Positions 15,177 through 56,396 of a stretch of 64,000 nt of DNA are shown here, piece by piece. The notes beneath the pieces are model-generated. The model had not been told where the DNA came from and made no database searches. It saw only the letters and a list, made by a program, of their open reading frames with translations. Origin of the DNA: Dictyostelium discoideum (taxonomy: Eukaryota); contig CM000153.2 in assembly GCA_000004695.1 (NCBI GenBank), positions 5,386,250-5,450,249 of the forward strand, in the 5' to 3' direction. Numbering within the stretch: position 1 is the first letter of the stretch; each line of letters starts with the position of its first letter. The position numbers and the translations under genes were made by a program.

Positions 15177-15246
15177 TTATTTATTATTTATTTACTATTT
15201 ATTTACTATTTATTATTTATATATTCAATTATTTTATTTTATTTAT

Positions 15247-16992
15247 TTATTTATTTTTTAAATAATTTGTAATTAGTCTAGCAGTATTTTTTGAAGATAT
15301 AGTTGTTGTTTCAATAGTAGATACAGAATGTTCGAAAGCATTATTATAGAATAAACCTTGATCTATAATGATTGGTGGGAATTTTTGAGCTGGTGTCAAT
15401 ACTGGATATGCACTCCAAACATGATAATGTAATAATTCAGGTTTAATAAAGAATTTATCAATTAATTTTGAATCTAATTTCTTTGGAGCAAATATTTTAA
15501 AAACTTGTCTTCCATCATCAAGTTTACCCTATATGAAAATAATTAATAATTAATAATTAATAAATAATAAAGAAAAATGACTAATAAATATAATAAAAGT
15601 TACCCTTGAATTTTCACAAAGACTAAAGAATGGTAAAGATTTATTAAAAGAAGTTAAAATACAATCAATTGGATGATCTTTTGGATAACCAAAATATTCA
15701 GCATTGATTGAATTTGCAGCAATTAAATGAACATGAACTTTTTTATAATCTTTTTTTGGTATTGTTTCATGAGTGAATGGTAAACCTGTGAATTTAATAT
15801 TTGAGAATTCAATAGGTGTTGAAATTACAACAATATCAAATTCCTCGATTGATATTTGATTATTATTTGATAAATCTTTTGATGTAATTTTATAAATAAT
15901 TTTTTTATTTTTTTCATCATCATTATCATCATCATCATGATCAATTAAAACTTTTTCAATTTCAATAACTTCATGAGTTGATAAAACTTTTGATTTTGTA
16001 TTATTTAATAATGCCTCAGATATTTGATAATTACCACCTTGAACAGAGAATAAACCATCATCAGTACCTGCCAAACCAATGAATGCAGCAAATGCTGATA
16101 AATTATCATAATCTTGATTATAATTTACTCTCATACCAGCCGATAAAATATCTTCAACAAATTCAGTTGAAATTCCTAACTTATCACAAAAATGTTCTTT
16201 TGCTGTTGATTTAGTAACTTCTAATAAACCTAAATTTTTATAAAATTCTTCAACACTTTTAAATGGTTCACTATTATTATAACCTTTTAAAAATTTATTT
16301 ATAACATCATCTCTAGCATCTTTACAAAAATAATAATTAAATAATTTTAATTTTAATTTTTTTGGTAAAATAAAAATAAAAATAAAAATTGAAAAAAAAA
16401 AAAATTGGAAAAACTTACTTTTAAATTTAATTGGTGACATAAAATAATTATATAACATTTTTAATTGATTAACTATTGTATATGGGTGTTGTGAAAAAAC
16501 AAATTCTTTACCATTCCAAATTACTAAATTTTTATTATCAACTTCTTCAGATTTTTTAATTTTTAAACCAAGTTTATTTATTAATCCAATTATATTTTCA
16601 TTTAATGGGTGAACGACACTACCACCTAATTCAGTGTATTTACCTTGAATATCGATATTTCTAGTTCTACCACCAATTTTTTCCTTTTCAAAAACTGTAA
16701 TTTCAATTGGTTTATCAATTCTATCTGATAATGATTCTTCATTAATATAGTATGCACATGATGATCCTCCAATACCTGATCCAATAATTGCAATCTTTAT
16801 TGGTTCAACAGGTTCAAAATGATTATGTGATTTTATTTCTTCTTTTTCATTATTATTATGTTGATGTTGATGATCAGTTTCAAAGAATGGATGGTTATGT
16901 GGTGTATTTTTATTTTCATTACCACTACATTCTATAATTGAATTTAAAAATAAAGAAATTAAAAAAATTATTAAAATATTATGTTTTATCAT
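15247..16992 (-). CDS. Prenylcysteine oxidase (PCYOX1-like flavoprotein), about 523 aa. Three exons: complement(join(15247..15528,15604..16319,16419..16992))
   Basis: Signal peptide, then FAD-binding KIAIIGSGIGGSSCAYYI (GxGxxG) and ITVFEKEKIGGR. The C-terminal part is prenylcysteine-lyase-like. Introns 16320..16418 (gtaagt..aaag) and 15529..15603 (gtaact..atag). The exon lengths close the reading frame exactly. The 3' exon ends at TAA, 15247. Confidence 0.8.
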
Positions 16993-43093: not shown

Positions 43094-48801
<5,708 letters not shown>

Positions 48802-49059
48802 AATAAAATATTTGTTTTTTTATTTTTTTTTTAATCAATTATTTTAATTTTTTTTAAAAGATTCCATAAAATTGAAGTTATTTTTTTATAAAAAAAAAAA
48901 AAACATATAAAATAAAAAAAAGAATAATAGAAATAAAAATTTAAATATATATTTTTTGACCTTTAATTTTTCAAAAAAATCTTCCAGACGACCATTTGCA
49001 AATGGTAGAAATTATTGAAACGAACCAATATTGCTTTCATTTTAAAAATTTCCAAAAAA

Positions 49060-49141
49060 GTAAGCTTGCCCGAGCTGGTCTAAGGGGTTGCATTAAGGCT
49101 GCAATATCATTGATACAAGGGTTCGAATCCCTTAGCTTACA
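49060..49141 (+). tRNA. tRNA-Leu (anticodon AAG), type II with a long variable arm, 82 nt
   Basis: GTAAGCT acceptor stem / AGCTTAC 3' half. D-arm GCCCGAGCTGGTCTAAGGGG. Anticodon stem TTGCA/TGCAA with loop TTAAGGC (anticodon AAG). Variable stem-loop ATATCATTGATA. T-arm with B box GGTTCGAATCC. Discriminator A. Confidence 0.85.
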
Positions 49142-49172
49142 AATAATTTTTTCAAAAAAAAAAGAGATCAGA

Positions 49173-49183
49173 GGATCGATTCC
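49173..49183 (+). promoter_or_regulatory. ex-B box (extra TFIIIC-binding B-box-like element) about 32 nt downstream of tRNA-Leu copy 1
   Basis: GGATCGATTCC resembles the internal B box GGTTCGAATCC. Its position matches the ex-B boxes characteristic of Dictyostelium tRNA genes. Confidence 0.5.
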
Positions 49184-49199
49184 ATATTGAAAAAAATCT

Positions 49200-49570
49200 C
49201 TCGAGTTGTTTGGATATGATAGATTTGAAATTTTTGGCTTGTTCGTTGTTTGTAGCTTTTTTTTCTTGTCTAATTAGTTTGAATATGTAGTTTTTGGTTC
49301 TCTCCCACGCTACGTATTGCGTTTTTTTAGTTCGTGAAATATTAATATTTCCTTTCTTGGGTTTTTGAGGGTGATTCCTTCATGAACTTTTTGTTTCTTC
49401 TTCTCCAGATGTTTTCGCATATAATGGCTATTGTATTGGATGTTAAAGAAATACCTAGTTTGTTGAGAACTTCAATACCCCATACAATCCTGGACCTCCA
49501 CTTTTCTCTTGTACGTAGTTTATGCAGTTTAAATAATTTGTAATTGAAATGAACTTTTTTTTTTGAATTA
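49200..49570. mobile_element. Non-AT-rich, non-coding block between the two tRNA-Leu copies. Probable truncated tRNA-gene-targeting retroelement (TRE-like) remnant
   Basis: The G+C content here is markedly higher than in surrounding intergenic DNA (e.g. ctctcccacgctacgtattgcg, gggtgattccttcatgaac, ccccatacaatcctggacctccac). There is no long ORF. It lies about 55 nt downstream of a tRNA gene with an ex-B box, the preferred insertion zone of TRE3-type elements. Confidence 0.35.
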
Positions 49571-49686
49571 TATAACGCAATTATTAGTTGCTTCTCCTTG
49601 AGCTTTGAAATGAAATAATTTTTTTTTTTTGAATTTGAAATGAAATAATATTTTTTTTTTTTTTTTTTTCAGAAATTTTCAAAAAA

Positions 49687-49768
49687 GTAAGCTTGCCCGA
49701 GCTGGTCTAAGGGGTTGCATTAAGGCTGCAATATCATTGATACAAGGGTTCGAATCCCTTAGCTTACA
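49687..49768 (+). tRNA. tRNA-Leu (AAG), second identical copy in a tandem duplication (coordinates +/-1)
   Basis: The same 82-nt sequence as copy 1. The upstream 20 nt (tttccaaaaaagtaagc) and the downstream ex-B box are duplicated too. Confidence 0.8.
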
Positions 49769-49800
49769 ATTAATTTTTCAAAAAAAAAAAAAGAGATCAG

Positions 49801-49811
49801 AGGATCGAATC
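49801..49811 (+). promoter_or_regulatory. ex-B box downstream of tRNA-Leu copy 2
   Basis: GGATCGAATCC sits about 33 nt after the tRNA 3' end. Confidence 0.5.
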
Positions 49812-50470
49812 CAGTGTTACGAAAAATTGATTTTATATTTTATTTTTATTTTATTTTTATTTTATTTTTATTTTTTTATTTTCGGTATTAACAAACCGAA
49901 CTTCGTAAAAATAGCAATATATTTTACACCAGATTGAAAACAATGGTAAAATTAATAAACCAAAATTTCCATGCGAAGTTCATCAATCTTTATCTCAATC
50001 AATCACTCTTTAAGATTATTTCAATAGTAGTATTTTCTATGCTCAGATCCTAAACTTCACTAAAAAAAATAGGTAAATATTGATATTGATATTGATTTTG
50101 ATTCTGTGAAATTTTCAATTGTTTTCCTAGAATTTTTATTTAACTCTTGTTGGAAATCATTAAACTTTCTGTGTGCATCATTGAACTGAAAAATATTAAG
50201 TACCCCAGCCAAAACTGCTATATTTTTTAATTTTATGAACATATTTTTATTTTTTAAATTTCTCTTTTGATAGCTGTTGGACTTGATTTTCATTCAAAAT
50301 ATTGTAGAATAAAATCAATCTTTAGTATTAAAAATTTTTGATTATTAATTAAAATGAAACCATAGTGGAGAAAGGAACTCCTTAAAATAATTTAAAAAAA
50401 TAAATAATTCCTTAAGGAATTAATTGAAATAATTGATTTTATTCATGAAATAATAAAAATTTAATATATT

Positions 50471-50507
<37 letters not shown>

Positions 50508-50567
50508 GGTGACCTTTTTATTTCTATTTTTTGATTTCTATTTTGAAAATAATTTAGATTTGATTAA

Positions 50568-50606
<39 letters not shown>

Positions 50607-51038
50607 GTTCTGGTAATTATTTAGATTTAATTATAATTCTGCATAAAAAAGAAATCTTTTCTACAACTGCTCGATCAATTAGTACCAACTGAGGCATTCG
50701 ATTTATTAGAAAAGTCCACTTTTATTTATTTATATAATACTATTATTGGTTATCAAATTAATAAAAAAAATTTTTTTATAATAAATTTCTTTATTTTTAT
50801 AAATAGATTTTATAATAAATTAAAAAAATATATATGTAATGAAATTGAATGATGTATTCGGATTGTATTTTATTGTATACAAATATAAAGAAAAATAAAA
50901 ATATCTATTAATTAAATTAATTATATTTTTTTTTATTTTTATTTTTTTATTTATTTTTTTTATACCAACTTTTTTATTTTACACAAAATTTTTTTTTTTT
51001 TTATTTTTGATAACTATATCTAACTTCTTTTGATTTAC

Positions 51039-51095
<57 letters not shown>

Positions 51096-51327
51096 GAAGT
51101 TATTTTCAAAAGGTGGTTTTGATAAAATTAATTTTTTTTTTTTTTTTTTTTTTTTAAATTTCCAATTTTTATTATTTTTTATTTATTTATTTCATACCCA
51201 CATTAATAATAGAAAAAAATATGAGTAATGTTAAAATAAAAAAATATAATTACAAAATCAAAAATTAACTTTTTTTTTTTTCTTATTTTTATTTTTTTTA
51301 ATTTTTTTTTTTTTTCAATTTTTTTTA

Positions 51328-56396
<5,069 letters not shown>

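Follow-up and report, generated by a model that had tools for sequence, protein, structure and literature searches.

A probable stack of TRE5-type retrotransposon remnants between two identical tRNA-Leu(AAG) genes of Dictyostelium discoideum

The terminal 64 kb of chromosome 4 of Dictyostelium discoideum AX4 (positions 5,386,250-5,450,249; the whole stretch of 64,000 nucleotides is called the window here, and coordinates refer to it) contain only two tRNA genes according to ARAGORN, both of them tRNA-Leu(AAG) genes on the plus strand. The two genes, LeuAAG-4 and LeuAAG-5 of the published catalogue, are 82 nucleotides long without any difference between them, and both score well above the gathering score of 29 for RF00005 (Table 1); besides these two, the region 48700-51500 yielded no Rfam match at E<=1. 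Between them lies a GC-richer block of DNA, e1, accompanied by two much shorter insertions, e2 and e3. We consider it very probable that this spacer is made up of dead copies of a TRE5-type retrotransposon, all 5'-truncated and stacked on one another, that integrated about 50 bp upstream of LeuAAG-5.

Table 1. Features of the two tRNA-Leu(AAG) units and the spacer between them, in window coordinates
Feature	Position	Strand	Basis or remark
Paralogous unit D1 (~45-50 nt upstream flank, LeuAAG-4, terminator, ex-B box 1)	49017-49199	+	alignments
tRNA-Leu(AAG) 1, LeuAAG-4	49060-49141	+	ARAGORN; Rfam 50.8 bits; chr4 5435309-5435390
Internal B box of LeuAAG-4, GGTTCGAATCC	49120-49130	+	pattern search
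T6 run, Pol III terminator of LeuAAG-4	49147-49152	+	read from sequence
ex-B box 1, GGATCGATTCC	49173-49183	+	31 nt past the end of LeuAAG-4
e1, probable old TRE5-type remnant	49184-49548	-	translation, blastn, tblastn, alignments
Probable e2 target-site duplication, distal copy, TTGAAATGAA	49544-49553		proximal copy 49605-49614
e2, probable extremely 5'-truncated TRE5 insertion	49555-49603	-	C-module alignment, blastn
16-nt direct repeat, distal copy, TTTGAAATGAAATAAT (tentative e3 target-site duplication)	49604-49619		exact repeat
e3 (tentative), TTC + A11, last bases of C-module (..AATTC) + tail	49620-49633	-	read from sequence
16-nt direct repeat, proximal copy	49634-49649		-53 to -38 of LeuAAG-5
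Proximal upstream flank of LeuAAG-5 (A, T19, CAGAAATTTTCAAAAAA)	49650-49686	+	homologous to -1..-30 of LeuAAG-4
tRNA-Leu(AAG) 2, LeuAAG-5	49687-49768	+	ARAGORN; Rfam 50.8 bits; chr4 5435936-5436017
T5 run, Pol III terminator of LeuAAG-5	49774-49778	+	read from sequence
ex-B box 2, GGATCGAATCC	49802-49812	+	33 nt past the end of LeuAAG-5

Each tRNA gene is followed by a short T-run, the established termination signal of RNA polymerase III (Pol III), and then by an ex-B box. The pattern GGWTCGAWTCC has four matches in the window against 0.00 expected, namely the two internal B boxes (that of LeuAAG-5 starts at 49747) and the two ex-B boxes, the first of which and the internal B box before it have starts 53 nt apart. 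The ex-B core, GATCGA, is one base off the B-box consensus GTTCRAnYC (PMC3159450). Judged by these elements, both units fit the description of a Dictyostelium nuclear tRNA gene with an ex-B box, at which binding of TFIIIC is predicted. The trailers of the two genes differ (AATAATTTTTT versus ATTAATTTTT). Their upstream flanks are identical at 17/20 and 9/10 positions in ungapped alignment, and the similarity reaches about -50, with an alignment score of 41 compared with 1.2 +/- 9.7 (maximum 27) for composition-matched controls. There are thus two paralogous units, each extending from about -50 to about +45-57 and including a terminator and an ex-B box, and both tRNA genes retain every promoter and terminator element. 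The initial annotation had recognized the tandem pair of identical genes and the ex-B box behind each of them, both of which our searches bear out; the roughly 20 nt of upstream flank that it called identical are similar, and the similarity extends further than proposed, but the identity does not hold. Upstream of LeuAAG-4, the target-site motif ATTGAAACGAAC at about -43 is free of any insertion. A perfect 14-nt palindrome, CCATTTGCAAATGG, lies at 48992-49005, about 55-68 nt 5' of LeuAAG-4 and just beyond the region common to the two genes.

The block between the tRNA genes (49180-49554) has a GC fraction of 0.32, compared with 0.07-0.16 in the adjoining spacer, and its plus strand is T-rich. 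On the minus strand we found the probable frameshifted tail of open reading frame (ORF) 2 of a non-LTR (long terminal repeat) retrotransposon (AIICENIWRRRNKK) and the adjoining 3' untranslated region (UTR). This fragment, e1, is about 350 nt long and antisense to both tRNA genes. Its ORF2 zinc-finger-domain tail reads CINYVQEKSGG / RIVWGIEVLNKLGISLTSNTIAIICENIWRRRNKK, and about 190 nt of B-module-like 3' UTR are kept after it. The ORF2 fragment matches P0001 (DDB_G0282541), which UniRef names a reverse-transcriptase zinc-binding-domain protein, with 76% identity (E 1.2e-9), as well as a protein of D. cf. discoideum, and its DNA is 76.6%, 73.8% and 70.1% identical to three copies at two other loci (blastn). 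A 94-amino-acid minus-strand translation of the block had no Pfam match. In tblastn the ORF2 homology shifts between three frames and is interrupted by in-frame stops, so that e1 is a decayed copy; it retains only the last ~60 codons of ORF2, the zinc-finger tail, whereas the apurinic/apyrimidinic endonuclease and reverse transcriptase parts have been lost by truncation. The elevated GC content noted in the initial annotation is real, and so is the retroelement origin of the block, with other copies in the genome at 70-77% identity. That the block is non-coding is correct in so far as it is decayed, but not in so far as its minus strand still carries a frameshifted ORF2 tail.

We compared e1 with the two loci that encode the proteins matched by its ORF2 fragment (L001 and L002) and with the corresponding locus of D. 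citrinum (L003). The copies in the first two loci all sit upstream of tRNA genes, on the opposite strand and with the 5' end toward the tRNA, at distances of 43-46 bp, and have a C-module, an A-tail and duplications of 11-14 nt. At a tRNA-Ser(GCU) gene in L001 the element starts 46 nt away and has an exact 14-nt duplication, GCTGTCATCGATGA; at a second tRNA-Ser gene of the same locus the distance is 43 nt and the duplication matches at 11/12 positions, and at a tRNA-Asn gene in L002 the values are ~45 nt and ~10/11 positions. The 3' parts of these copies share one order: ORF2 tail, ~190 nt of UTR, an ATG (MELTNTH..), ~90 nt, an A-run of ~30, ~100 nt and an A-tail. In a multiple alignment, the ~100-nt terminal segment ends in ..GCAACTAAAAATTGCGTTATTCCATTC, followed by the short A-tail, and ~285-290 nt that include the ATG separate ..IWRRRNKK from the A-run of the C-module. 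For the final 54 nt of the comparators a fold with three stems is predicted, stem I containing C38 and A35 and stem III containing C26 and T15. These are the positions of TRE5-A.1 that were mutated in a published study (PMC3159450), and since all four bases are as expected and lie in stems I and III, they tie the comparator tail to a TRE5-A-type C-module. The endogenous TRE5-A primers Rep-190 and Rep-109Q (PMC5391098, S1) have no match in these 5'-truncated comparator copies.

Behind the A-tails of two of the TRE5 copies in L001 (8313-8430 and 10750-10800) we also observed one to three tandem units of ~39 nt, each of which contains the first ~20 nt of tRNA-Ser(GCU) together with the flank immediately upstream. 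At sites occupied by TRE5, the target region and with it a portion of the tRNA gene thus seem to have been duplicated more than once.

The 5' end of e1 lies near 49548, ~47 nt from LeuAAG-5 after subtraction of e2 and e3. At the other end, homology to the comparators stops at ..CTCGAGAGATTT, within 49184-49199 and ~8 nt short of the ORF1-type ATG present in the comparator copies, and the next bases enter ex-B box 1. The remaining UTR, the C-module and the tail, ~225 nt in all, are missing along with the distal duplication, and the missing part was not found upstream of LeuAAG-4 either. The junction lies within a 16-nt stretch, 49184-49199, in which the ex-B flank and the TRE sequence are alike. 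The reverse complement of the TRE5 UTR at the ORF1-type ATG (GGTGAGTTCCATTGTTAACTAAAT) is ~64% identical to the ex-B box with its flank (GGATCGAATCCAGTGTTACGAAAAAT), the sites concerned being 49173-49199 and 49802-49828 in the window and 10500-10540 in L001. This likeness may be due to chance, or it may be microhomology that was used in the loss of the 3' end of e1.

Between e1 and LeuAAG-5 lie the two tail-only insertions. The first, e2, consists of the last 39 nt of a C-module (49603->49565, GCTCAAGGAGAAGCAACTAATAATTGCGTTATATAATTC) and a tail of A10 (49564-49555). It could be aligned with four C-module copies and is 83-87% identical to comparator copies by blastn; counted from the 3' end, it has T at position 15, C at 26, A at 35 and C at 38, matching TRE5-A.1. 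It is flanked by a 10-nt duplication, which on the minus strand reads TTCATTTCAA at 49553-49544 and repeats 49614-49605. The candidate e3 is enclosed by a 16-nt direct repeat, on the minus strand ATTATTTCATTTCAAA (49649-49634; again 49619-49604), of which there are two exact copies 30 nt apart and no third exact copy in the window; the first part of the distal copy doubles as the proximal e2 duplication. We tentatively regard e3 as a TRE5 tail insertion as well. The 5' ends of e2 and e3 each lie ~53 nt upstream of LeuAAG-5, so that the stack, read on the minus strand from this gene, runs 17 nt of flank, A19, 16-mer, e3, 16-mer, e2, e2 duplication, e1. The target-site duplications that the initial annotation proposed to look for are present for e2 (10 nt) and for the tentative e3 (16 nt), but not for e1.

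The class of these remnants follows from their strand and from the end that faces a tRNA gene. TRE5 elements are found 44-54 bp upstream of tRNA genes in opposite orientation, and TRE3 elements 40-150 bp downstream in the same transcriptional orientation (PMC5911963). The 5' end of TRE5-A always faces the tRNA 5' end, and new copies form tandems at genes that are already occupied (PMC5391098); the target-site duplications of TRE5-A measure 10-16 bp (PMC9012585). The remnants between the two tRNA-Leu genes lie 47-53 nt from LeuAAG-5 on the opposite strand, oligo(A) and a duplication in this size range are seen in e2 (A10, 10 nt) and in e3 (A11, 16 nt) but not in e1, and e2 carries the C-module known from TRE5-A and TRE5-C. 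The initial annotation had instead assigned the block to a TRE3-class element inserted downstream of LeuAAG-4. The block does start 43-58 nt past that gene, at the near edge of the TRE3 range, but a TRE3 would have the same orientation as the tRNA, and since the ORF2 tail is antisense to both tRNA genes the remnant cannot be the TRE3 of LeuAAG-4. Furthermore, the end beside LeuAAG-4 is a broken 3' UTR with no A-tail, all relatives are in the TRE5 position upstream of their tRNA genes, which is the layout seen relative to LeuAAG-5, and a C-module fragment specific to TRE5-A and TRE5-C is part of the same stack. We therefore regard a TRE3 origin as highly improbable. That the block contains no mobile non-LTR element, and represents either part of a host gene that has decayed or a solo DGLT-A or Skipper-2 LTR, is scarcely plausible. 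Both of these elements also target tRNA flanks, 13-33 bp upstream and 8-23 bp downstream, respectively (PMC5911963), but neither range suits the distances here; there is no LTR-like terminal structure, and the homology is to a non-LTR ORF2 tail, 3' UTR and C-module whose other copies have A-tails and duplications.

Within TRE5, TRE5-A has the structure AB-ORF1/ORF2-BC and is the only type with a 3' B-module; the C-module of 134-137 bp is terminal in TRE5-A and TRE5-C, but not in TRE5-B (PMC3159450). TRE5-C is without a 3' B-module, and its terminal structure comprises 51 rather than 54 nt, although the C-modules of TRE5-C and TRE5-A are 78% identical over the last 87 bp (PMC3159450). From its sequence, the long UTR with an ORF1-type ATG ahead of the comparator C-module would fit a 3' B-module. 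The element is most likely TRE5-A, which we favor over TRE5-C without considering it established.

A number of points weigh against the interpretation of the spacer as a TRE5 stack. The largest fragment, e1, has no C-module, A-tail or target-site duplication; it would thus be assigned by its homology, by its strand and by where its 5' end lies, with the hallmarks of target-primed reverse transcription (TPRT) absent. Since TPRT products ought to retain the 3' terminus, e1 has to be supposed to have undergone a deletion or rearrangement afterwards, one that would have joined the remainder of e1 to the sequence directly after ex-B box 1. With a body of only 3-5 nt, e3 offers too little sequence for a homology comparison, and duplication of 30 nt by slippage would look much the same. 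All distances to LeuAAG-5 depend on the present length of the T19 run. Finally, the choice of TRE5-A within TRE5 is unsettled, as its criteria are indirect.

The history that best accommodates these observations would begin with integration of TRE5 copies by TPRT in the orientation opposite to LeuAAG-5, with the element 5' end turned toward the tRNA gene's 5' end. Targeting may have occurred through TFIIIC and TFIIIB bound at LeuAAG-5, as published for TRE5-A, and repeated insertion at this one gene would have produced the tandem stack of three, with e1 first and therefore oldest, and e2 and e3 following later at one site. A subsequent deletion or rearrangement associated with microhomology would then have removed the ~225 nt of the e1 3' end, its distal duplication and any spacer beyond it. 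None of the remnants can encode a protein, and they are probably without function.

To place these events in time, we examined the orthologous spacer of D. citrinum, which lies between the same SHPRH-like and Ras/Roc-domain genes and measures ~850 bp, compared with ~2.4 kb in AX4. It contains one tRNA-Leu(AAG) gene, 100% identical to the AX4 genes and inverted relative to the AX4 pair, with its own ex-B box (GTTCGATTCC), and it has no TRE homology. With one unit and no remnant in D. citrinum, the second unit and the remnant are either gains of the D. discoideum lineage or losses in D. citrinum. In the downstream spacer the two AX4 units are more alike than either is to the D. citrinum unit. 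When the full-length gene downstream of the pair was used as query, the D. citrinum orthologue was the sole hit, probably owing to saturation of the candidate list by low-complexity words. The inverted tRNA-Leu(AAG) gene lies at 9276-9357 of L003, and just past the Ras/Roc-domain gene, at 15245-15329, D. citrinum has a tRNA-Leu(UAA) gene that is absent from the AX4 window. Given this inversion and the extra tRNA-Leu(UAA), the two sister species show a rapid turnover both in which tRNA genes they have and in how these are oriented.

Either the tRNA duplication or the insertion of e1 may have come first, and two alternatives connect them differently. It is possible, though rather unlikely, that e1, e2 and e3 inserted at a single tRNA gene and that a small segmental duplication or ectopic recombination afterwards placed a copy of the unit into the 3' part of e1 or in its stead. 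The junction within the 16-nt stretch of likeness between ex-B flank and TRE, and the upstream site of LeuAAG-4 that lacks an insertion, are in keeping with such a course; yet the missing 3' part of e1 is not upstream of LeuAAG-4, so that an extra deletion would still be required, and a flank divergence of ~10-25% between the units implies that the duplication is not recent. A more direct connection, which we hold to be improbable, is that the insertion of e1 itself created the duplication, by the fill-in of a very long staggered break (from about -50 to just past the ex-B box) as a target-site duplication of ~190 bp, or by break repair around the insertion, perhaps mediated by microhomology, that copied the unit, in which case the two tRNA genes with their ex-B boxes would be copies flanking e1. 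The paralogous units indeed end where e1 starts, on both sides, but this coincidence is trivial and uninformative, because any insertion or junction truncates detectable homology. The closer similarity of the AX4 units to each other than to the D. citrinum unit in the downstream spacer argues that the duplication postdates the split from D. citrinum, as does the remnant, and the partial tRNA-Ser 5' fragments behind TRE5 tails in L001 would offer a parallel. On the other hand, a TPRT 3' end with an A-tail would be expected beside the left copy and is absent in e1, published TRE5-A duplications are only 10-16 bp (PMC9012585), and neighbors with the same anticodon are common irrespective of TRE elements (GlyUCC-3/-2 at 437 bp, ValUAC-4/-5 at 1.4 kb and SerGCU-3/-4/-5 at ~4 kb; PMC5391098, S2 Table). 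If the duplication were nevertheless a by-product of TRE5 insertion, tRNA-targeting retrotransposons would help to generate the many identical tRNA pairs of D. discoideum.

Downstream of the pair, the further GC-richer blocks reported in the initial annotation exist as features of composition, with GC fractions of 0.237 at 49884-50360 and 0.333 at 50640-50720. In blastn and tblastx comparisons, 49816-51330 gave nothing meaningful against L001-L003 or the rest of the window, and the two blocks have no counterpart in the D. citrinum spacer or the TRE-bearing loci, a very small comparison set that includes no TRE3, Skipper-2 or DNA-transposon references. They contain no RNA family (Rfam) and no long ORF; the sole ORF of the downstream region, of 77 amino acids, has no relative among 1.84 billion representative proteins, and a chimeric query that combined an ORF1-like N-terminus, the N-terminus of the downstream gene and this ORF found no match. 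It is possible that the blocks are a decayed element of a class outside the comparison set, such as TRE3, Skipper-2 or a DNA transposon. In the same region, a T31 run (50476-50506) faces an A31 run (50573-50603) across a 66-nt spacer (GGGTGACC...AAATTTT). The pair could form a 31-bp A:T hairpin, and might represent two opposed retro-insertion tails or just homopolymer expansion.

The tRNA pair is already catalogued and is an ordinary locus of a known kind. LeuAAG-4 and LeuAAG-5 are listed in the S2 Table of PMC5391098, and the start-to-start offset is 627 nt both there and in the window. In the TRE5-A(bsr) integration profile given in the same table, LeuAAG-4, whose upstream site is without an insertion, has 229 adapter-library reads, and LeuAAG-5, whose upstream site carries old TRE5 debris and duplicated 16-mers, has 0. 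Either the repetitive, A/T-rich sequence may have distorted the mapping of reads, or the two sites may differ genuinely in target activity. Exact protein matches identified DDB_G0287195, DDB_G0287151, spastin and DDB_G0287177 among the genes of the window. The ORFs that flank the pair encode 1634 and 1638 amino acids (1872 and 1685 in the spliced models). They are not paralogues, which would have implied a larger tandem duplication; one encodes an SHPRH-like SNF2/RING helicase and the other a Ras/Roc-domain protein.

Beyond correct annotation the significance of the locus is slight. It is a clean example of TRE5 using the site ~50 bp upstream of Pol III genes, which offers safe landing where the haploid genome is gene-dense, and of successive insertions at one tRNA gene that leave tail-only fragments. 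The revision from TRE3 to TRE5 illustrates that class is decided by strand and facing end, not by proximity to a tRNA gene alone, and by the D. citrinum comparison, barring loss in that species, both the remnant and the additional tRNA unit originated within the D. discoideum lineage. Of some interest is the loss of the e1 3' end exactly beside the ex-B box and its possible link to the tRNA duplication.

Compared with known elements, the stack most resembles TRE5-A (formerly DRE), with which it shares the site ~50 bp upstream of the tRNA gene, the opposite orientation in which the tRNA is faced by the element's 5' end, 5' truncation, an oligo(A) tail and 10-16-bp duplications. It also shares the C-module tail with the stem I and III nucleotides of TRE5-A.1, what is probably an ORF2 tail followed by a UTR segment of ~190-290 nt with an ORF1-type ATG that resembles a B-module, and tandem stacking at an already occupied tRNA gene. 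It differs in that all three copies here are dead fragments and in the missing 3' end of e1, which is unusual for a TPRT product. TRE5-C has the same target site, orientation and C-module end, but in the comparators the C-module is preceded by a long UTR that includes an ORF1-type ATG, and it is the 54-nt numbering that suits their stem positions. TRE3-A to -D belong to the same superfamily and share the ORF2 domain order and tRNA targeting; they use the region of the downstream B box or ex-B box and have no C-module, whereas the remnant is antisense to the tRNA genes and has relatives in the TRE5 position. Like 5'-truncated TPRT products of the L1 type, e2 and e3 are tail-only with short duplications, but they are site-specific at a Pol III gene rather than dispersed. 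As to the tRNA genes, the 2005 genome paper reportedly places about one fifth of the tRNA genes of D. discoideum in pairs of this sort. The same-anticodon pairs and arrays of this species consist, as here, of identical genes separated by anything from a few hundred bp up to a few kb, and the sole peculiarity of the LeuAAG-4/-5 pair among them is a spacer that very probably consists almost entirely of TRE5 debris.

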